Source: an uncultured Spirochaetota bacterium (GTDB lineage: Bacteria; Spirochaetota; Spirochaetia; SZUA-6; Fen-1364). From it: a stretch of 64,000 nucleotides of DNA. The stretch covers positions 544,001-608,000 of the forward strand of contig CAWGAA010000001.1 in NCBI GenBank assembly GCA_963820525.1. The letters are read 5' to 3'. A program made the position numbers and the translations under genes. The notes below the pieces were generated by a model. That model did no database searches. It worked only from the letters and a program-made list of their open reading frames with translations, and had not been told where the DNA came from. This document shows, in pieces, positions 1,037 to 9,187 of this stretch (position 1 is its first letter; each line of letters starts with the position of its first letter).

Positions 1037-2323
1037 TTACTGACCCGTGGTCTGCTTGTACTCCTGTTCGGCATGGGCGATGGCATCGTCCACGCTCTTC
1101 AGGTCTCCCTTGAACATCAAGAGGATCGCGTTTCTAAGTGTATCCCGCATGGGTTGATAATTGGGGGTGTACATGAGGACGGGGACCTTCTCCATCCAGG
1201 CCGCGAAGTCCTTGAAGACGGGCTGGCTCTTGTAGAAGAACTCGTCGGGTGCCGTGTAGTTGGACCCGGTCCTGCTGGGCAGGTAGGTGCCCATGGCGCC
1301 CGCGCCCTTGAGAATGATGTTGTAGAACTGGAGGGCATCGGGCTTGCTGCTGGCCCAGGTGTTCTTGAGGAAGTCGATCGCCAAAGCCTTGTTGGGGCTT
1401 GAGGCGAAGACGTACCAGCTGGACCCGCCGTTGTTGCTCGCGTTCTGCGCGCCCGGCACGCCTTCCAGAAGCGGGGTCGGGACAACCATCCAGTCGCCCG
1501 CGTTGGCGGGCTGGGACTTCAACGTAGCAATGATCCACAGCGCGTTGAGGAATCCGACCGTGTCGCCGCCGTTGAAGGAAGCGATCCAGTTGTTCCAGCC
1601 CTCAGTCGGGTAGAGCAGCCCCTTGTCGTTCAGGTCTTTCAGGATGGCGAGGGACTTCATCATTGCGGGGGTGCGGAAGTTCAGCGACCCGTCCGGCTTG
1701 AAGAACTGGGTGCCGGTGGACTGCACCATGATCCGCAGGAAATCGAAGCTGGTAGTGTCGTAGGCGATGAGGGGTTTCGCGATCTTGGCCTTGAGCTGGA
1801 CTCCCAGGTTGGTCATCTGGGTCCATGTCATGTTCTTCTTATAGGAGTCGGGGTTGAGGCCCGCGGACTTTATCATGTCGGCGCGCAGCCAGAATCCCGT
1901 GGAGCCCGTATCGAACGGAATGCCGTAGATCTTGCCCTTCTCGCTCATGGGCCCGACCTTATACTGGGCGAACTTCGAATAGTCCACGCCGGCGGCCTTC
2001 AGGTCCACGAACGCGCCGGGGTAGTTCTGAATGAACTTTTCGATGCTGAAATCCTGGATGAGGACGATGTCGGGAAGTCCCGCGCCTCCCGCCTGCAGGC
2101 CCGCCTCCATCTTTCCCTCAATGTTCTCGGGGATGTCGACGACCTGGATGGTCACGTCGGGGCGGATCTTGTTATAGACCTTGACTGCCTCTTTCATGGA
2201 GAACCCGTTGAAGTTGGGGTCCCAGCACCAGATAGTCACCGTCTTTGCGTCAGCCGCCATCACGCTCGGCACGAAAATGACGATGGCGAGCACCACCACG
2301 AAAGCCAGAATGACTCTCTTCAT
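1037..2323 (-). CDS. Sugar ABC transporter substrate-binding protein (family 1)
   Basis: Signal peptide MKRVILAFVVVLA..., TIWCWDPNFN, LPDIVLIQD, YGIPFD, NGGSSW motifs; GAGGAGG SD. Confidence 0.9.
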   Translation of the reverse strand: MKRVILAFVVVLAIVIFVPSVMAADAKTVTIWCWDPNFNGFSMKEAVKVYNKIRPDVTIQVVDIPENIEGKMEAGLQAGGAGLPDIVLIQDFSIEKFIQNYPGAFVDLKAAGVDYSKFAQYKVGPMSEKGKIYGIPFDTGSTGFWLRADMIKSAGLNPDSYKKNMTWTQMTNLGVQLKAKIAKPLIAYDTTSFDFLRIMVQSTGTQFFKPDGSLNFRTPAMMKSLAILKDLNDKGLLYPTEGWNNWIASFNGGDTVGFLNALWIIATLKSQPANAGDWMVVPTPLLEGVPGAQNASNNGGSSWYVFASSPNKALAIDFLKNTWASSKPDALQFYNIILKGAGAMGTYLPSRTGSNYTAPDEFFYKSQPVFKDFAAWMEKVPVLMYTPNYQPMRDTLRNAILLMFKGDLKSVDDAIAHAEQEYKQTTGQ

Positions 2324-2363
2324 AATGCCTCCTCTCGACAGATGAATTGGAAAGCCGTCGTTT

Positions 2364-2391
2364 ATTATAGCCTCGCCGATGTACCTGTCAA
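2364..2391 (-). promoter_or_regulatory. Sigma70 promoter of the sugar ABC operon
   Basis: Consensus TTGACA-N16-TATAAT upstream of the SBP start. Confidence 0.8.
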
Positions 2392-2444
2392 GGAGAACCT
2401 CCAATTCGCCAAGCGGGGAAGGGCTCCAGAAGCTGCCGAAACGT

Positions 2445-2474
2445 TTGCAGAAACGGCATTCCGGCCAGTACATT
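2445..2474 (+). promoter_or_regulatory. Putative sigma70 promoter of ligD
   Basis: TTGCAG-N18-TACATT, 12 nt upstream of ATG 2487. Confidence 0.45.
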
Positions 2475-2486
2475 GGGATCAAACGC

Positions 2487-4553
2487 ATGGGACAAGAGGC
2501 GTACAGGAAAAAAAGGGACTTCAGCGCGACTCCGGAGCCGCCGCCGGCCTCGGAAACCCTTCAGGCAGGGAGGTTCGCGGGAAGCTCATTCGTCGTTCAT
2601 CGCCATGAAGCCCGAAGGCTCCACTACGACCTTCGGATCAGGGCGGGAGATGCCCTCGCCTGCTGGGCGGTCCCCAAGGGGTTCTCCTATGACCCGGCCG
2701 ACAAGAGGCTCGCCGTGAGGACCGAGGACCACCCGCTGGAGTACGAGAGCTTCCACGGGGTCATCCCCCGCGGCCAGTATGGAGCCGGAACCATGCAGAT
2801 CTGGGACTCTGGCGATTACCGGCTGGTAAAGGGGCGGGACATCATGGAAGCGCTCGAAAAGGGGGAGCTGAAGCTCGAGCTGAAGGGCCGCCGCCTGCGG
2901 GGAGAGTGGCACCTCGTCAGGACCCGGGGAGAAGAAGGCAAGGAATGGCTCCTGTTCAAGGCAAAAGACCGCTACGCCGGGTCCGGGAGCGACCTGTTCG
3001 GCGCAGTCGACATGGGCCGCGCCCGCCGCAAGCCCCCTCCCCCGCGGCCCGGCTTGATGGAGCCGTCCCCGGGGCACGCCTTGTTCTCAGACCCGGACTG
3101 GATGTTCGAGACGAGCTTCACGGGAAGGCGAGTGGCGATCTCGGTTAGCGAAACTCAAGTGAGCATTCGTTCGACGAAAACGGATCTGGCGCCGCTTTTG
3201 CCCGCGATCGTGCATGACCTGGGCGGGCTTCGCTCCCAGAGGGCGATCCTCGACGGAGCTCTGGTCGCCCTCGACGCGAAGGGCGTGCCCTCCGCGAGGG
3301 CGCTGGAAGAACAGTTGAAGGCCGGGGGGAATGGCATCGTTCTGTATGTCTTCGACGTGCTCTACGTGGAGGAGTGGGACGTGCGCCCGCTCCCCCTGAG
3401 AGAGAGGAAGGCTCTCCTTCTGGCCCTGCTTCCGGAGCGGAATCGCGTTCTCCGCGTGGACCCCGTCCCCGAGCACGGGGAAGCCCTCGCCGAGGCGGCC
3501 TCCAGGGCCGGGCTTTCCGAAATCGTGGCCAAGAGATCGGAAAGCTCCTACCGCGCCGGGCCTTCGGACGACTGGCGCCTGATCGATGTCCGTCGGGCGG
3601 CGGGCGCCCGCGGCGCCGGGCGAAAGCGTACGAATGCGATCGTTCGGGTGACCAACCCCCGAAAGGTGTATTGGCCCGAGCAAGGCTATACCAAGGCGGA
3701 TCTCGTGGCCTTCTACGACGGGGTGGCGGACGTGCTCCTCCCCTATCTGAAGGACAGGCCGCTGCACCTGTATCGCTGGCCCGATGGGGTTCGGGGGAAA
3801 TCCTTCTACCAGAAGCAGCTCCCGGCCGGGCTCCCGGACTGGGTGGAGACGGCGAACGTCGCCCCAGCCGGGGAGAAGCCAATCTCCTACATCGTTTGCG
3901 GGGACCGGCGGACGCTTCTCACTCTCATCAACCTGGGGAGCATCGACCTGCACCCCTGGCTTTCGCGAAGGGGGAGCCTCGATTCCCCGGATTGGGCGGT
4001 CCTCGACCTGGATCCCAAGGACGCCCCCTTTGCCAGCGTCGTGAAGATCGCGCGGGAAACCGGAAAGCTCCTGCGGGGGCTCGGGCTTGAGCCGTACCTC
4101 AAGACATCGGGCTCCACGGGGCTGCACGTCTTCATCCCGCTCGCGCCGGGCTACACCTACGATCAGAGCCGGATGTTCTCGGAGGCAGTGGCGCGGCTTG
4201 TGGTTCGCGATCACGGCGACATCGCCACAGTCGAGCGCGTCGTCGGCCGGCGCGGCGGGAAGGTCTACATCGATTTCCTCCAGAACCGCAGGGAGCAGAC
4301 AATCGTCCCGCCGTACGTTGTGCGCCCCGTCGAGGCGGCAACCGTTTCGATGCCGCTCGCATGGGACGAGCTGGAAGAGGACGTGAGCCTTCGTGACTAC
4401 ACCGTGGCGTCCGCTCGCACGCGCATTGCGAAAGTGGGGGATCTGTTCAGCGCCGCCCTCAGCCGGCCGCAGGATCTTTCCCCGGCCATCGAAGCCCTGG
4501 GGGGCTACCTCAATCCAACTGGTCCTCGGCGGAAGGCTCCTGCAGCAACCTGA
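2487..4553 (+). CDS. ligD: LigD-like NHEJ end-processing protein: 3'-phosphoesterase + degenerate ligase domain + primase/polymerase
   Basis: PE motifs YRKKRDF..TPEP, HEARRLHYDLR, WAVPKG, EDHPLEY, YGAG; POL motifs TNPRKV, YTKADL, RWPDG, FYQK, DLDP, KTSGSTGLHV, YIDFLQN; central ligase-like domain lacks catalytic residues. Confidence 0.9.
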   Translation: MGQEAYRKKRDFSATPEPPPASETLQAGRFAGSSFVVHRHEARRLHYDLRIRAGDALACWAVPKGFSYDPADKRLAVRTEDHPLEYESFHGVIPRGQYGAGTMQIWDSGDYRLVKGRDIMEALEKGELKLELKGRRLRGEWHLVRTRGEEGKEWLLFKAKDRYAGSGSDLFGAVDMGRARRKPPPPRPGLMEPSPGHALFSDPDWMFETSFTGRRVAISVSETQVSIRSTKTDLAPLLPAIVHDLGGLRSQRAILDGALVALDAKGVPSARALEEQLKAGGNGIVLYVFDVLYVEEWDVRPLPLRERKALLLALLPERNRVLRVDPVPEHGEALAEAASRAGLSEIVAKRSESSYRAGPSDDWRLIDVRRAAGARGAGRKRTNAIVRVTNPRKVYWPEQGYTKADLVAFYDGVADVLLPYLKDRPLHLYRWPDGVRGKSFYQKQLPAGLPDWVETANVAPAGEKPISYIVCGDRRTLLTLINLGSIDLHPWLSRRGSLDSPDWAVLDLDPKDAPFASVVKIARETGKLLRGLGLEPYLKTSGSTGLHVFIPLAPGYTYDQSRMFSEAVARLVVRDHGDIATVERVVGRRGGKVYIDFLQNRREQTIVPPYVVRPVEAATVSMPLAWDELEEDVSLRDYTVASARTRIAKVGDLFSAALSRPQDLSPAIEALGGYLNPTGPRRKAPAAT

Positions 4554-5661
4554 GCCTTCTTGAGTCAGGAAAGGACCTGTCGAACGCGCCCCGGTGGGCA
4601 AGCGCTTCCCCGTGACGGCCGAGACGCTCCAGGATAGTGGCGAGATTGCAGTGGGCATCCGGGTAGTCCGGCTCCAGAGAAATCGCCATCTCGTATGCCG
4701 AAACCGCATCGCCGGGCTTGTTCACCGCGGCGAGCGCATTGCCCAGATTGTTCCACGCTTCGGCGAACTCGCCGTCGGCCTCGATGGCCCGCATGTAGTT
4801 CGCCGCTGCTTCCGCCTCACGGCCGAGCCCGTAGAGCACGTTCCCCAGGTTGAACCAGGTTTCGGGATCCGGGGAGACCTCCAGCGCGCGGCCGTACGCA
4901 GCAGCGGCAGACTCCAGATCGCCCCGTTCCTCTGCCTCCACCCCGGCGGCAAACCATCGGCGCGAGTCCTGTTCTCCCGGAAAGGCGGCGATACGAGGGG
5001 AGCTCCCGCTTTCGTCTTCCCAGTCCAACAGCAGCTGCCCGTTGGGCTCGGCCCAGCCGCCGTTTGACAGCCGCACGCGCAGGCCGCGGTCATAGGCATC
5101 CAGGCGCGCGATCATCCTCTGCGCCTCGGGAAGCCAGCGGGCTATCTCTTCGAGGCTCATTCGGATGCGGGAAGCGGGGATCCCGCAAGCGGCAAGCCTG
5201 CTCAGGCCGCGGGCGCGTACGATGTCGGTGAACCCGAACCAGGCCAGCCGCCGCGCCACCCGGGCGGGTTTCAGAAGCCCATGGCGGAGCCATGACCGCA
5301 CCTCGGAGAGCGGCGCTCCGACGATCCGGCTCACCTGTTCTACCGTGTACAGGCGGGTGAAGTCCTCCAGCTCCTCCTCCGCCCCCAGAGCCCTGAGAAA
5401 CTCGGGCTCCTCGATCAGGCGGATTCGGGCGCCTTTCGTCGTGAGCTCCCGGCAGCGCGCCAGGTTTTCCGTGAGGCCTCCGTCCCCGGAGAGCGGGCCC
5501 TGCGCCTGGCCGACGACGAGCACCTGCGTTGAGGCACCGGGCGTACGAACATAGCGTCCTCCCGCGCCGGCTATCCGATCGATCGCCTCCATCCTGGTCA
5601 TCGAGACCAGACGGCCGGTGAGCGCCACCTCCATGCCGGCGAAAGACGAGCTCCCTGCCAT
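4510..5661 (-). CDS. BRCT + MerR-type HTH + TPR repeat protein
   Basis: N-terminal LigA-type BRCT (FAGMEVALTGRLVSMTRMEA..AGG..TQVLVVG..IEEPEFL); MerR HTH (LYTVEQVSRIVG..VRSWLRHGLLKP); C-terminal TPRs (WFNLGNVL, AWNNLGNAL, AHCNLA). Confidence 0.85.
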   Translation of the reverse strand: MAGSSSFAGMEVALTGRLVSMTRMEAIDRIAGAGGRYVRTPGASTQVLVVGQAQGPLSGDGGLTENLARCRELTTKGARIRLIEEPEFLRALGAEEELEDFTRLYTVEQVSRIVGAPLSEVRSWLRHGLLKPARVARRLAWFGFTDIVRARGLSRLAACGIPASRIRMSLEEIARWLPEAQRMIARLDAYDRGLRVRLSNGGWAEPNGQLLLDWEDESGSSPRIAAFPGEQDSRRWFAAGVEAEERGDLESAAAAYGRALEVSPDPETWFNLGNVLYGLGREAEAAANYMRAIEADGEFAEAWNNLGNALAAVNKPGDAVSAYEMAISLEPDYPDAHCNLATILERLGRHGEALAHRGAFDRSFPDSRRLRLLQEPSAEDQLD

Positions 5662-5665
5662 ATGT

Positions 5666-6562
5666 CTATGATTCTATCAGCTCTTCGAACACCGGGAAAC
5701 GGAAAAGCCCGTCATTGGTGAGCTCGGCAAAGCTCACGGTGCAATACACGCCGGGCTCGATCCATAGAGCCCTATCCCGGCATGCCACAATCGGTGCGTC
5801 GCGTGGGCGCTCCCGCATCCTGGCGTTGAGCCTCGCCCTCGCGGCCTTCGAGAAACCGCTTCCGACCCTGCCGAGGTAACGCAGAGCTCCATCCCCTCCG
5901 CCTGAAAGCCCGCTGCCGGCCACCAGGATGCTCTGGAAGTCCTCTTTGCCTTTCTCCATGAATCCGATGACGGCGACGGCGGCCCGAAGCCGCTTCTTGA
6001 TCTTGACCCAGGCCCCATTTCGCTTTCCCGGGGCGTACGTGCTTGAAAGCTTCTTGGCCACGACCCCTTCGAGGCCGAGCCCGCAGGCTTTGTCGTAGAG
6101 GGCCAGGCCGTCCGAGCGCACGCCCTCTGAAAGCAGGAGGGGCTGGAAGCGCGAGCCGCCGATGAGCTCCTCGAGGCGTGCACGCCGCTCAAGAAAGGGC
6201 AGATCCGTCAGGGATTCGTATGCCATGTAGATGACGTCGAACGCGATGAAGCTGAGCGGAGCGTGCCGCGCCTGCCGCGTCCGCCTGAGGACCAGGCCGA
6301 GGTCCGGCCTTCCGTCATGAAAAGCGACGATTTCTCCGTCCAGAACGAGCCCCTCCGGCAGGCCCGCAAGGCAATCCAGCTCCGGGTATCGCTCGCTTAT
6401 TTCCCCGCCGTTCCTGCTCACGATCCGACGCCTTCCATGCTCGATCATGGCAAGGGCGCGGATGCCGTCCCACTTAATCTCGAAGAAATGTTCGCCGGAA
6501 TCGAAGGGCTCGCCCAGAACGGCAAGCATCGGCGGGATGAAGCGGGGAAGCTCTCTAGCCAA
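5666..6562 (-). CDS. Stand-alone ATP-dependent DNA ligase (LigD-ligase/LigC-like)
   Basis: PMLA, motif I EIKWDGIR, III LDGEIV, IIIa FDVIY, IV GLEGVVAK, V WVKIK, OB domain GRVGSGF..FRFPVF; probable TTG start at 6562 behind GAGGA, overlapping the Ku stop. Confidence 0.9.
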   Translation of the reverse strand: MARELPRFIPPMLAVLGEPFDSGEHFFEIKWDGIRALAMIEHGRRRIVSRNGGEISERYPELDCLAGLPEGLVLDGEIVAFHDGRPDLGLVLRRTRQARHAPLSFIAFDVIYMAYESLTDLPFLERRARLEELIGGSRFQPLLLSEGVRSDGLALYDKACGLGLEGVVAKKLSSTYAPGKRNGAWVKIKKRLRAAVAVIGFMEKGKEDFQSILVAGSGLSGGGDGALRYLGRVGSGFSKAARARLNARMRERPRDAPIVACRDRALWIEPGVYCTVSFAELTNDGLFRFPVFEELIES

Positions 6563-7448
6563 CTTTCCTCTTCTTGGCCGCGGCCTTTCCCGGCTTCGTG
6601 CTGGGCGCCTGTTTGAGCCTGGCCTTCGCCTGACCATCGGCGTTGTCCGCAATTGCCGGGTTGGCGGCCTGCGCCTCCGCCACGCTGCGCTTCAGGGCTT
6701 CCATCAGGTTGATGATCTTGGGCTCCTCGGGCTCGCGCACCTGGACGATCTCCTTGCCTTCGATCTTCAACTGGATCAGCTTGGTGAGCTTTTCCTTGTA
6801 GACATCCTTGTAGCGGGCAAAGTCGAACTCCTTGATCACCGAGGCCTTGATCAGCGTGTCGGTGAGCGAGATCTCGGCGTCGGTCGTCTCGCTGTCCTTG
6901 ATCTCGTCCGTGAACGCGGAGGCCTGCTTGACCTCGTCATGCCGGATGAGCACGGTCATCGATAGCACGCCGTCGATCGGGCGCAGGATCACGACCTGCT
7001 CCTTTCCCGCGATCACCACCTCTGCGATGGCGCTCATGCCATTGGCCTGCATGCCCTGCATCAAGAGCTTGTAAGGCTTCTGCCCCACCGGGCCGTCCGG
7101 AGTCACGAAGTATGTGCGGCCCGCGTAGTACAGGGGGGACAGGCTTTCCGGCGGGATGAAGCCGTCGATGCGGATGGATTTGTCGCTTTCCGTTCGAAGC
7201 TTGTCCAGCTCATCGTCATTGATGATGACGTACTGGCCCTTGTCGTACTCGTAGCCCTTGACGATCTCGTCGTTTCCAACCTCACCGACTTCCGGCGCGA
7301 ACTTCTTGTACTGGATGCGCGTCATCGTCTTGGAGTGCAGCTGATGCAGAGTGAGGTCGTTTCCCGATGACGTGGCCGTGTATGCCTTGACCGGCACTGA
7401 AACCAGGCTCAGCTTGAGGAATCCCTTCCAGCTTGCGTGAGCAGCCAT
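6555..7448 (-). CDS. ku: Non-homologous end-joining protein Ku
   Basis: WKGFLKLSLVSVPVKAYTAT, IVKGYEY, INLMEALKRSV, basic Lys-rich C-terminal tail. Confidence 0.97.
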   Translation of the reverse strand: MAAHASWKGFLKLSLVSVPVKAYTATSSGNDLTLHQLHSKTMTRIQYKKFAPEVGEVGNDEIVKGYEYDKGQYVIINDDELDKLRTESDKSIRIDGFIPPESLSPLYYAGRTYFVTPDGPVGQKPYKLLMQGMQANGMSAIAEVVIAGKEQVVILRPIDGVLSMTVLIRHDEVKQASAFTDEIKDSETTDAEISLTDTLIKASVIKEFDFARYKDVYKEKLTKLIQLKIEGKEIVQVREPEEPKIINLMEALKRSVAEAQAANPAIADNADGQAKARLKQAPSTKPGKAAAKKRKVG

Positions 7449-7537
7449 CGCTCGCCTCCCCCCGCGCGCCCCGCCATCTGCGCAAGGCCGGGAGGGCCAG
7501 CTCTGCGGCGGCCGCGTACTCCCCTTCCCAGTAAGCT

Positions 7538-7566
7538 AAGCTACGAAGCGCGGCATCGGGAGTCAA
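7538..7566 (-). promoter_or_regulatory. Putative sigma70 promoter of the ku-ligase-BRCT operon
   Basis: TTGACT-N17-TAGCTT. Confidence 0.6.
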
Positions 7567-7585
7567 GTCGCGGCGGTTCGGGAGC

Positions 7586-9187
7586 TCAGCCGCCGAATGC
7601 CGTGGAGAGAAGCTCCTTCGTGTAGGGATGCCGGGGGTTGGAGAATATCTCCCGTGCCGGACCGGACTCCACGATCTTTCCCTGCCTCATGATGACGATC
7701 TGGTGGCAGAGGGATTTGAGAACCGCGAGGTCGTGGCTGATGAAGATATAGCTCAAGCCCAGCTTGTCCTGGAGGCCTTTGAGGAGCTCGATCACCTGGA
7801 ACTGGATGGTGCGGTCCAGAGAGGAAGTAGGCTCGTCCAGGACGAGCACAGCCGGCTTCAGCACCAGCGCGCGCGCAAGCGCGATACGCTGCCTTTGGCC
7901 TCCTGAAAACTCGTGGGGGTAGCGGAATCGCTGCTCGGGGTCAAGGCCAACTTCCCGCATGGTTTCAATAATGAGCCGCTGCCTGCTCTGCGGGTCGCCG
8001 ACCTTGTGGACAAGCAGGCCCTCGCCAATGATCTGCTCCACGGACATCCTGGGGCTCAGGCTGCCGAAGGGGTCCTGGAATATGATCTGCACGCGCCCGC
8101 GCAGGAGGCGAAGCTCTTCCTGTTTCATGAGATGAATGGCTTCCCCGTCGAGGCTGATCTCACCTTCGCTTTTTACCAAGCGAAGTATGGCTTTGCCCAG
8201 TGTAGTCTTGCCCGAACCGCTCTCTCCCGCCACGCCCAGGGTCTGGCCCTTCAGGAGCTCAAATGCTACGCCGTCCACCGCCTTCACGTAGCCCTTTGTC
8301 CTTCGAAGGAAGCCCCTTTGAACGGGAAACCACACCTTCAGGTTCTCAACGCGCATGAGGGTCCCGCGTGCTGGATCAGGCGCCGGCGGCTCGCCCTTGG
8401 GCTCGGCGTCCAGAAGCGTGCGGGTATAGGGATGCCGCGGCCGGCTGAAGATCTCATCGACCGGGTTCTGCTCGAGAATCAGCCCGTCATGCATCACGGC
8501 CACGCGGTCCGCGATGCGGCGGACGATACCCAGATCGTGCGTGATGAAGAGCACCGACATTCCGAGGTCCCGCTGGAGGTCCTTGATGAGGCGGAGGATC
8601 TGGGCCTGGATGGTGACATCCAGCGCCGTGGTGGGCTCGTCCGCAATGAGGAGCTTCGGCCCGTTCACCAGCGCCATGGCAATCATCACCCGCTGCCTCT
8701 CCCCGCCGGAGAGCTGGTGCGGATACGCCTTGAGCTTGGCTCGAGGGTCCTGAAGCCCTACCCTGCCCAGCCAGTCCACGGCGATCGGGCTCGCCTTGGA
8801 GGGCGGCAAACCCTGGTGGAGAGAGAGGGCCTCGTTCATCTGTCTTTCCACGGTATGCAGGGGGTTGAGGGATGACATGGGCTCCTGGAAGATCATGCCG
8901 ATCTCGGCCCCCCTGATGCTCAAGAGCTCCTGGGGTGTCATGCCCAGTATTTCTCGCCCGCGAAACCAGACCTCTCCCCGAGGGTAGGCGATCAAAGACT
9001 CGGGTATGAGCCGAAGAACGGACTGGGCGGTGACAGTCTTGCCCGACCCGCTTTCTCCGACAAGGGCTACAGTCTCGTTTTCCCCTATTGAGAGGTCCAC
9101 TCCATGGACCACGTTGTTCACCGCGCCCGCTTTTCGAAAGCCGATATGGAGGCCGCTGATTCTCAGAAGCTCGCTCTGGGCGGCCAT
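7586..9187 (-). CDS. yejF: Peptide ABC transporter fused ATPase, YejF-like
   Basis: Two Walker A GESGSGKT motifs, LSGGERQR and FSGGQRQR signatures. Confidence 0.9.
   Translation of the reverse strand: MAAQSELLRISGLHIGFRKAGAVNNVVHGVDLSIGENETVALVGESGSGKTVTAQSVLRLIPESLIAYPRGEVWFRGREILGMTPQELLSIRGAEIGMIFQEPMSSLNPLHTVERQMNEALSLHQGLPPSKASPIAVDWLGRVGLQDPRAKLKAYPHQLSGGERQRVMIAMALVNGPKLLIADEPTTALDVTIQAQILRLIKDLQRDLGMSVLFITHDLGIVRRIADRVAVMHDGLILEQNPVDEIFSRPRHPYTRTLLDAEPKGEPPAPDPARGTLMRVENLKVWFPVQRGFLRRTKGYVKAVDGVAFELLKGQTLGVAGESGSGKTTLGKAILRLVKSEGEISLDGEAIHLMKQEELRLLRGRVQIIFQDPFGSLSPRMSVEQIIGEGLLVHKVGDPQSRQRLIIETMREVGLDPEQRFRYPHEFSGGQRQRIALARALVLKPAVLVLDEPTSSLDRTIQFQVIELLKGLQDKLGLSYIFISHDLAVLKSLCHQIVIMRQGKIVESGPAREIFSNPRHPYTKELLSTAFGG

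Follow-up and report, generated by a model that had tools for sequence, protein, structure and literature searches.

A bacterial non-homologous end joining cassette with a predicted ligase-dead LigD, a separate ligase and a conserved BRCT-MerR-TPR companion of one Ku subfamily

Introduction

Two proteins, Ku and LigD, make up bacterial end joining as it is taught and reconstituted. In the canonical form of this non-homologous end joining (NHEJ) machinery, as present in Mycobacterium, Pseudomonas and Bacillus, a Ku homodimer is paired with a multifunctional LigD. We analyzed a 64,000-nucleotide stretch of DNA from an uncultured Spirochaetota bacterium (GenBank assembly GCA_963820525.1, contig CAWGAA010000001.1, positions 544,001 to 608,000; hereafter the window) that carries a four-gene NHEJ cassette. 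The cassette has the bacterial Ku, PE, POL and LIG modules in common with the canonical system and differs from it in that the ligase is located on a separate polypeptide, in that the LigD-like protein contains an apparently dead nucleotidyltransferase (NTase) domain with no OB fold, and in that there is a third conserved co-operonic gene. This gene codes for a protein with BRCT, MerR-type helix-turn-helix (HTH) and tetratricopeptide (TPR) domains that we call BMT. Bacterial NHEJ as such is well known; the novelty here lies in the pairing of a putative pseudo-ligase LigD with a free ligase, and in a BRCT-MerR-TPR protein that is conserved as the companion of one Ku subfamily.

Split or ‘non-conventional’ NHEJ sets are known from Streptomyces, from Methanocella, which has stand-alone Lig, Pol and PE proteins, and from mycobacteria in the form of LigC/Prim-PolC. 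These sets resemble the cassette described here in having the ligase apart from the end-processing modules, but differ in that PE and POL stay fused in our cassette around a pseudo-ligase that retains ~50% identity, and in that BMT is attached. Regarding the BRCT domain, its nearest matches are the single BRCTs of LigA, RFC1 p140 and PARP1 and the BRCTs of eukaryotic NHEJ proteins (Pol mu, LigIV, XRCC1-LigIII), with which it shares the fold and a T-G motif. In BMT, however, the BRCT is fused to a MerR HTH and to TPRs, and a bacterial protein of this type is not mentioned in the available text of a BRCT review (PMC10386641), which contains no reference to MerR, tetratricopeptide or ‘bacterial BRCT’ and gives LigA and a polymerase exonuclease subunit as the bacterial cases. 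Sharda et al. (2020; PMC7719229) sorted NHEJ loci by the presence of domains, and the available text of that study makes no mention of BRCT, accessory proteins, catalytic lysines, Planctomycetes or Spirochaetes. Under its rules the present locus would probably count as conventional NHEJ. Likewise, in the available text of a structural review of LigD (PMC8656161) the term ‘inactive’ is applied only to PE point mutants. An initial reading of the window that was made from its sequence alone (the sequence-only reading) stated that no characterization of such a system was known. In line with this, searches of full-text literature, a scope that excludes subscription journals and supplements, turned up no account of either a BRCT-MerR-TPR protein or a ligase-dead LigD.

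Results

Layout of the cassette

All four genes are encoded within 5 kb of the window, as follows, with LIG* denoting the altered ligase domain of the LigD-like protein:

6555-7448, minus strand: ku, 297 residues, first gene of the block (Pfam PF02735, 1.2e-44)
5666-6562, minus strand: free ATP-dependent DNA ligase of the LigD-LIG type, 298 residues, NTase plus OB
4510-5661, minus strand: BMT, the BRCT/MerR-HTH/TPR gene, 383 residues, last gene of the block
2487-4553, plus strand: LigD-like PE-LIG*-POL gene, 688 residues, converging on BMT

The ku product also matches the NCBIfam model TIGR02772 Ku_bact (2.1e-75, 253.5 bits, cut-off 150), and the free ligase matches both the NTase (PF01068, 4e-30) and OB (PF04679, 9.5e-16) families of Pfam, with TIGR02779 NHEJ_ligase_lig as its best NCBIfam model (1.7e-64, 217.9 bits, just below the cut-off of 227.75). 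The ligase gene starts with a TTG codon at 6562, giving an 8-nt overlap with the ku stop, and this start agrees with those relatives whose lig gene starts immediately where ku ends. BMT starts 4 nt past the ligase stop, as read in the sequence of the junction, and its 3' end is overlapped by 44 nt of the 3' end of the LigD-like gene. Thus ku and the free ligase form one translationally coupled block with BMT as its third gene. We hold this description of the cassette with high confidence, and each of the four genes was found where the sequence-only reading had placed it, including the overlap and the gap. The 5.05 Mb genome, assembled in four contigs, has one Ku and one PrimPol, and its ATP-ligase domains are limited to these two. 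As judged from these matches and from the ligase motifs described below, the bacterial NHEJ gene set (Ku, a KxDG plus OB ligase, and PrimPol plus PE) is present, with the free ligase being the only protein that has both KxDG and OB.

A LigD without ligase motifs beside an intact free ligase

The LigD-like protein gives strong Pfam matches to PE (PF13298, 1.6e-39) and PrimPol (PF21686, 1.8e-83), only a 1.3e-8 match to the NTase family PF01068, and no Pfam match to the OB fold (PF04679). It passes the NCBIfam models TIGR02778 (242.5 bits, cut-off 214.7) and TIGR02777 (188.4 bits, cut-off 144), and reaches only 97 bits with TIGR02779, over model positions 10-180 of 302. Within LIG*, motif I reads ETSFTG in place of ExKxDG, and the Glu of motif III, the EG of motif IV and the KxK of motif V are all lost. 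The free ligase has EIKWDG as motif I and intact motifs III, IV and V.

We surveyed these motifs in 80 related loci plus the window, which yielded 27 uninterrupted PE-LIG-POL frames and 40 free ligases; L007, L009, L015 and L057, where LigD is split over frames, were left out. The motif I lysine is absent from all 25 of the short LigDs (~650-690 residues, window included), where the consensus is LFE..f.GrR, and the motif III Glu, motif IV EG and motif V KxK are also gone from all 25, each of which adjoins an intact free ligase. Since a median of only 45 residues separates motif V from POL in the short LigDs, as compared with 106 residues after motif V in the free ligases, the short LigDs lack room for an OB fold. 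KxDG is present in 39 of the 40 free ligases, and the remaining one (L065) was cut at its N-terminus in extraction. Only two LigDs are long (L030 and L084; 860-888 residues), and these keep EIKxDG together with a full NTase plus OB match. They come from exactly those loci of the motif-survey set that have no free ligase. The LIG* remnant that is retained in the short forms shows ~50% identity, versus ~73% for POL.

Going by these motifs, LIG* is a catalytically dead remnant in a protein that has kept PE and POL. With LIG* dead, sealing must fall to the free ligase, which we infer carries out this step, and the LigD-like protein would supply 3' cleaning and fill-in. The LIG* remnant, having been retained, may have a non-catalytic role. 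The proposal of the sequence-only reading that ligation and end-processing reside on separate polypeptides is therefore well supported across the short LigDs and their neighboring ligases. In databases the short form goes under names such as ‘bifunctional non-homologous end joining protein LigD’ or ‘non-homologous end-joining DNA ligase’. There is thus a widespread class of ‘LigD’ that is annotated as a ligase, that appears unable to ligate and that would rely on a separate ligase, which affects annotation as well as any tally of ‘conventional’ NHEJ.

BMT or LigD is divided between two reading frames in some relatives (G249:C28:186434-187028, G256:C9:161194-161707, L075 and the four loci left out above), which could reflect frameshift, decay or assembly error.

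BMT accompanies one Ku subfamily

A word-indexed search returned more than 100 full-length BMT homologs at 50-64% identity which, where named, are mostly from metagenome-assembled genomes of Spirochaetia, and Planctomycetota homologs were found at ~45% identity. A profile of the BRCT-MerR half matched 409 clusters (50% identity) at E<=1e-30 and 1767 at E<=1e-10, with most of the proteins being 370-460 residues long. The sequence-only reading had proposed a gene-neighborhood survey of BRCT-MerR-TPR homologs as a check on their linkage to NHEJ genes. We performed this survey using tblastn with the Ku, ligase and LigD domains of the window over 80 BMT-encoding loci from species genomes, and the result was strongly positive. 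Specifically, at least one NHEJ gene is present within 10 kb of BMT at 57 of the 80 loci, ku is located upstream of BMT on the same strand at 47, a free ligase is upstream at 43, and all four cassette genes are present at 26. Two layouts predominate, with ku-lig-BMT seen at 36 loci and ku-BMT, which has no free ligase, at 11.

Co-occurrence was also evident in genomes that were not chosen via BMT. Among 41 relatives of the window genome, 22 have Ku and 24 have BMT, with 22 having both, two having BMT only and 17 having neither, and the positive relatives are spread over four genera; among 201 Planctomycetota genomes with a completeness of at least 80%, where three BRCT-only matches were set aside, 30 have Ku, 29 have a BMT-like gene and 19 have both, although counts of this kind overstate independence because the sampled genomes are kin. 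In 18 of these 19 Planctomycetota genomes BMT is located no more than 5 kb downstream of ku on the same contig. The 11 Ku-positive Planctomycetota that lack a BMT match have a distant Ku (25-36% identity) that occurs with a canonical LigD or as paired ku genes, and in one of them (G393) ku is directly followed by a distant MerR-TPR gene. The order of the genes is preserved at protein identities of 35-60% in three architectures, namely ku-lig-BMT, ku-BMT plus a canonical LigD, and a BRCT-less form.

The Ku proteins that are linked to BMT also have a feature of their own. The C-terminal tail of Ku is conserved (..QAPSTKP..KKRKVG), with a BMT-linked motif of K-x-A-P-S ... KKKK-x-G in which columns K279, A281 and S283 are at least 90% conserved across 37 BMT-linked Ku sequences. 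The motif is absent from the distant Ku genes and from the Ku of L099, a cassette without BMT that is described below. We consider it quite probable that BMT is functionally tied to this Ku subfamily.

Two variations in the arrangement of ku were also seen. In the Planctomycetota loci L090, L092, L094 and L095 there are two adjacent divergent ku genes that are unrelated to the BMT-linked subfamily and that possibly code for a Ku heterodimer. In a portion of the spirochaete clade (L006-L008, L013 (G253), G251 and G254), 5-13 kb of other genes are located between ku and lig-BMT, the operon being broken there with all of the genes kept.

BMT without Ku, Ku without BMT, and BMT without a BRCT

BMT is not an obligate partner of Ku. 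Of the 80 loci, 23 are orphans with no NHEJ gene within 10 kb (three of these have less than 2 kb of upstream sequence). In the genomes of orphan loci Ku was found in four of 22, one being fragmented by stops, and was not found in 18, the completeness of these genomes not being given. Similarly, no Ku was found in 10 of the 29 BMT-positive Planctomycetota. When 19 Ku-less orphans were compared with 31 ku-linked Planctomycetota BMTs, the BRCT, MerR and TPR domains were equally conserved (mean top-residue frequency of 0.56-0.62 in both sets), with the two consensus sequences identical in 71-79% of columns. A search for neighbors common to the 23 orphan loci found none that was shared by more than three. 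In a BMT tree the orphans are scattered, and the starred branches force at least eight changes of context.

The composition of BMT and of the cassette varies as well. In L025, L026, L046, L050 and L080 a MerR-TPR form is encoded right after the ligase gene with homology starting at residues 79-104, which leaves no room for a BRCT. The BRCT-less form is also present in six sampled genomes. A ligase-MerR-TPR fusion was considered for the BRCT-less loci and was ruled out, as there are two genes in different frames. TPR-less BRCT-MerR clusters of 174-269 residues are listed in the ESM Atlas, which we treat as a lead only. A cassette without BMT is found in a spirochaete of another family (L099; G230:C52:7209-15757), where ku-lig converges on a dead short LigD. 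Its ku and free ligase show 49% and 42% identity, respectively, and its Ku ends shortly after the core without a long basic tail. Finally, BMT is also present beside ku with a canonical LigD (L030, L084 and L085; active-looking in L030 and L084), and therefore is not an adaptor that is specific for the split ligase.

Origin of the cassette

Ku was found in only five of 201 sampled genomes of the phylum to which the window belongs, as compared with 17 of 24 in its family, in agreement with the earlier remark that NHEJ is not a typical spirochete trait. In both the BMT and the Ku trees, which are quick searches with midpoint roots only, the main spirochaete clade (98-100 SH-aLRT) is nested among Planctomycetota ku-lig-BMT clades, and the two trees are broadly congruent. 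The G+C content of the block is 0.66-0.67 versus 0.57-0.61 for the flanks, where ABC-transporter genes are present on both sides. The cassette was thus probably acquired horizontally and moved as a unit. Taken together, the G+C step and the tree nesting suggest that the cassette may have come as a whole from a Planctomycetota-like source.

Domain architecture of BMT

The 383-residue BMT protein of the window is divided as follows:

Residues ~10-95: BRCT (NCBIfam, family profile and Foldseek)
Residues ~100-195: MerR-type winged HTH (Pfam MerR_1)
Residues ~196-230: disordered linker (AlphaFold2 model)
Residues ~231-362: array of 4-5 TPRs (Pfam and AlphaFold2 model)

The central and C-terminal domains are called directly by Pfam, with MerR_1 (PF13411) matching residues 105-171 (9.1e-8, 32.5 bits versus a cut-off of 21.6) and TPR_1 (1.9e-23) plus other TPR families matching residues ~230-357. 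The BRCT of the window copy is not called by Pfam. It is supported by an alignment of residues 3-91 to the BRCT-bearing C-terminus of the NCBIfam model PRK06195 (1.5e-7), by precomputed PF00533 matches on eight BMT homologs, and by a family profile built from 56 N-terminal halves which, when searched against the PDB, matched the BRCTs of RFC1 (2.5e-8) and LigA (~2e-6). The same profile matched the MerR-type HTHs of GlnR (8.4e-7) and TnrA (7.2e-5) as the best solved HTH relatives. Designer PPR proteins were the top PDB profile matches of BMT and were rejected as repeat-summed artefacts, as no single stretch passes alone.

The AlphaFold2 model of the whole protein has a pLDDT of 84.3 and a pTM of 0.78. 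A Foldseek search with this model was swamped by TPR matches, so the N-terminal 204 residues were folded (pLDDT 90.6, pTM 0.82) and searched separately. The BRCT region superimposes on a LigA BRCT (9a6z_B, 3.2e-4) with a root-mean-square deviation of 1.7 A over 87 columns, and the Foldseek probability is 1.00 for the BRCTs of LigA, RFC1, PARP1 and REV1. Other BRCT matches include Pol mu in an NHEJ complex, XRCC1/LigIII, LigIV, and the RFC1 entries 2ebu and 2k7f, the latter a model of a DNA complex; PDB entries 9cq3 and 3ii6 are among the fold matches. The TPRs superimpose on consensus TPR and OGT TPR structures at 1.2-2 A, and the HTH is matched by profile or fold to GlnR, TnrA, CarH, BrlR and SoxR (SoxR by Foldseek).

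A BRCT phosphate pocket is made up of a T/S-G that follows strand 1, a basic helix 1 residue and a T/S-x-K at helix 2 (available text of PMC10386641). In BMT, T15-G16 and R23 are present and conserved, with the T-G motif and the following Arg aligning with those of the LigA BRCT, and the T/S-x-K site reads T-E-N and is variable in the family. The class to which the LigA, RFC1 and PARP1 BRCTs belong binds 5'-phosphates, a property supported here by the title of PDB entry 2k7f.

BMT resembles MerR regulators such as TnrA, GlnR and HspR in its winged HTH, in the short helix that follows the HTH as in TnrA and GlnR, and in the position of its gene at the end of an operon of which it may be the regulator, as with HspR. 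It does not have the canonical MerR layout, in which an N-terminal HTH is followed by a long helix for antiparallel coiled-coil dimerization and then by a C-terminal effector domain. Instead, the HTH is central (residues 100-175) and is preceded by the BRCT, the following helix covers only residues 178-193, and the linker and TPRs come in place of the effector domain. A further difference is that no dyad operator or long-spacer promoter was found in the upstream regions that are considered next.

The region upstream of ku

The cassette genes on the minus strand are preceded by the following region:

7449-7585, minus strand: ku upstream region with TTGACT-N17-TAGCTT, a ~90-nt GC-rich leader and a ribosome site (GGGGGAGG)

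The sequence-only reading had placed the three minus-strand genes behind one promoter. In favor of this, the promoter-like element TTGACT-N17-TAGCTT is kept upstream of ku in most of the spirochaete relatives; on the other side, a consensus promoter scan flagged nothing upstream of the ku gene of the window. Located 3' of the -10-like box there is a conserved CACAGCGGGAGGGG-like stretch and the ~90-nt GC-rich leader, which has hairpin potential and no Rfam match (window 7449-7540, minus strand; L006-L019 and L075).

What BMT might do

The reading that we tentatively prefer, which we place just short of an even call, is that BMT serves this Ku subfamily as a DNA-binding sensor or regulator of the MerR type, and we think that it is not an obligate structural subunit. 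The winged helix, as modeled, would bind DNA, the BRCT, being of the DNA-associated LigA/RFC1/PARP1 class, would add recognition of breaks or ends, and the TPR array would bind a protein or peptide partner. In this manner BMT would couple break or Ku status to the expression or deployment of ku-lig under the control of a partner. We favor a regulator because the MerR HTH is the invariant core of a family in which BRCT-less and TPR-less forms exist, because its nearest solved HTH relatives, GlnR and TnrA, are partner-controlled, and because BMT is fully conserved where no Ku was found and a natural cassette lacks BMT. The elements of such a regulator have precedents: TnrA and GlnR are controlled by a partner enzyme, HspR is encoded at the end of the dnaK operon and uses DnaK as a co-repressor, and the combination of an HTH with TPRs is a common regulator design, as in the RRNPP family. 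Taken as a whole, we consider it an evenly balanced proposition that the locus represents a conserved, probably horizontally acquired variant of bacterial NHEJ built around one Ku subfamily with BMT as its sensor or regulator.

Several observations weigh against BMT as a regulator. In upstream stretches of 200-260 nt, taken from ku (48 regions) and from 20 orphan BMT genes, a search for inverted repeats, perfect or nearly so, found no BMT operator, sites elsewhere in the genome not having been searched. Promoters that are activated by MerR proteins have a 19-20 bp spacer with a dyad operator, and in the spirochaete ku element the spacer is 17 bp and a shared dyad is lacking. The k-mers that are enriched upstream in 51 non-spirochaete regions, (G/A)TGCTA(G/T) and gTGCTAnnnT, read as an extended -10, and any promoter element would come up enriched against the background of random windows that was used. 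Tandem TGCTAGCA palindromes are confined to three related Pirellulales loci (L034, L084 and L079). In addition, the 8-nt overlap and 4-nt gap imply near-stoichiometric synthesis with Ku and the ligase, which fits a subunit of a complex at least as well, and BRCT and TPR are classic scaffold modules, with single BRCTs recruiting factors in eukaryotic NHEJ (9cq3 and 3ii6 being among the fold matches).

These last points lead to the possibility, which we regard as rather unlikely, that BMT is a structural third subunit that bridges Ku, the ligase and the PE-POL protein and so corresponds in bacteria to XRCC4/XLF or to BRCT adaptors, with the BRCT and winged helix holding the DNA end through its 5'-phosphate and the TPR docking the Ku tail or the free ligase. 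The resemblance of its BRCT to the DNA-bound class, seen with both Foldseek and the profile and in the T-G plus Arg alignment, the translational coupling with ku and lig, and the conserved tail of the BMT-linked Ku, missing from the L099 Ku and the distant Ku genes, all agree with such a subunit. Co-prediction of structures, which had been suggested with the sequence-only reading, adds a weak predicted contact between Ku and BMT. Specifically, co-folding of two Ku chains with BMT scored 0.35 versus 0.00 for the best of three controls. Of 157 solved complexes 116 pass the benchmark mark, as do 2 of 215 mismatched pairs, and a pass at a score of 0.60 or below is seen for only 18 of the 157 solved complexes and for both of the mismatches that pass. 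The runs with two Ku chains and BMT agree in at least 37% of contacts with a partner pLDDT of at least 65. A fuller version of a multi-protein NHEJ, which we find equally doubtful, would have BMT as a third core factor with the BRCT and winged helix on the 5'-phosphorylated end and the TPR groove on the Ku tail (K-x-A-P-S ... KKKK), positioning the free ligase and the PE-POL/pseudo-ligase, with LIG* acting as a docking or DNA-sensing module. What stands against a subunit is that no Ku was found in a third of the BMT-positive Planctomycetota (10 of 29) or in most of the genomes with orphan loci (18 of 22), where all three BMT domains are equally conserved, that the BRCT is dispensable in at least five ku-lig-linked loci, that the L099 cassette is a natural example of the gene set without BMT, and that BMT occurs beside ku and a canonical LigD, so that recruitment of a free ligase is not a specific need. 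The sequence-only reading had suggested that the third factor could scaffold or regulate the other proteins. On the evidence just given a dedicated scaffold of a four-component machine is not supported, and the regulator alternative fits at least as well.

Two further explanations place BMT at a greater distance from NHEJ. The orphan copies in several clades with no conserved neighbors, the repeated changes of context on the tree, the presence of BMT in genomes where Ku was not found and the common HTH plus TPR architecture would all suit a general DNA-damage or stress regulator, or an end-binding factor, that has its own regulon and is often parked by ku, with NHEJ being one output or none. 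This we judge to be improbable, given that BMT follows ku or ku-lig on the same strand at 47 of 80 loci in two phyla and co-occurs with Ku in 22 of 22 cases in the order to which the window belongs. Hitch-hiking, whereby BMT is unrelated to NHEJ and was simply carried along when the cassette moved, would be in line with the G+C step and with the nesting of the spirochaete copies in Planctomycetota diversity, which makes movement as a unit probable. It is nevertheless very hard to reconcile with the retention of gene order over deep divergence in three architectures, and we give it little credence.

Whether it is a break-responsive regulator or a repair adaptor, BMT, a family of 409 clusters that accompanies one Ku subfamily in both Planctomycetota and Spirochaetota, would be the first accessory factor dedicated to bacterial NHEJ to be defined by comparative genomics. 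It thus offers a handle on how Ku-dependent repair is controlled or organized in bacteria, and the existence of natural drop-out variants that lack the BRCT, BMT, the free ligase or Ku makes the question of its role directly testable.

Additional features of the locus and its relatives

The TGCTAGCA palindromes are located upstream of ku-BMT in two loci (L034:2546-2598 and L084:3307-3323) and upstream of an orphan BMT in a third (L079:9855-9876), with only seven occurrences in 1.3 Mb of loci, and could be either an operator or overlapping -10-like boxes. A GC-rich hairpin-like CCCGT-N4-ACGGG is present upstream in L027 and L033.

An Rfam scan of window positions 2000-8000 gave no match at E<=0.1. 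A reading of the cassette as a defence system was also considered and was rejected, as PADLOC gave BMT only a 45-residue HTH match (mad1, 1.1e-5) and gave the other three proteins none. A 540-residue open frame that is antisense to ligD (window 3087-4709, minus strand) is taken to be an artefact of high G+C.

In the region where ligD starts, a perfect sigma-70 consensus promoter (TTGACA-16-TATAAT, 12/12; window 2364-2391, minus strand) faces a solute-binding-protein gene (1037-2488, minus strand) and is positioned back to back with the start region of ligD. A TGGTACATT-like extended -10 is located ~8-12 nt before the ATG of ligD in the window (2469-2474, plus strand) and in most of the spirochaete relatives (ligD upstream regions of L005-L017), and the ligD mRNA may thus be leaderless or nearly so.

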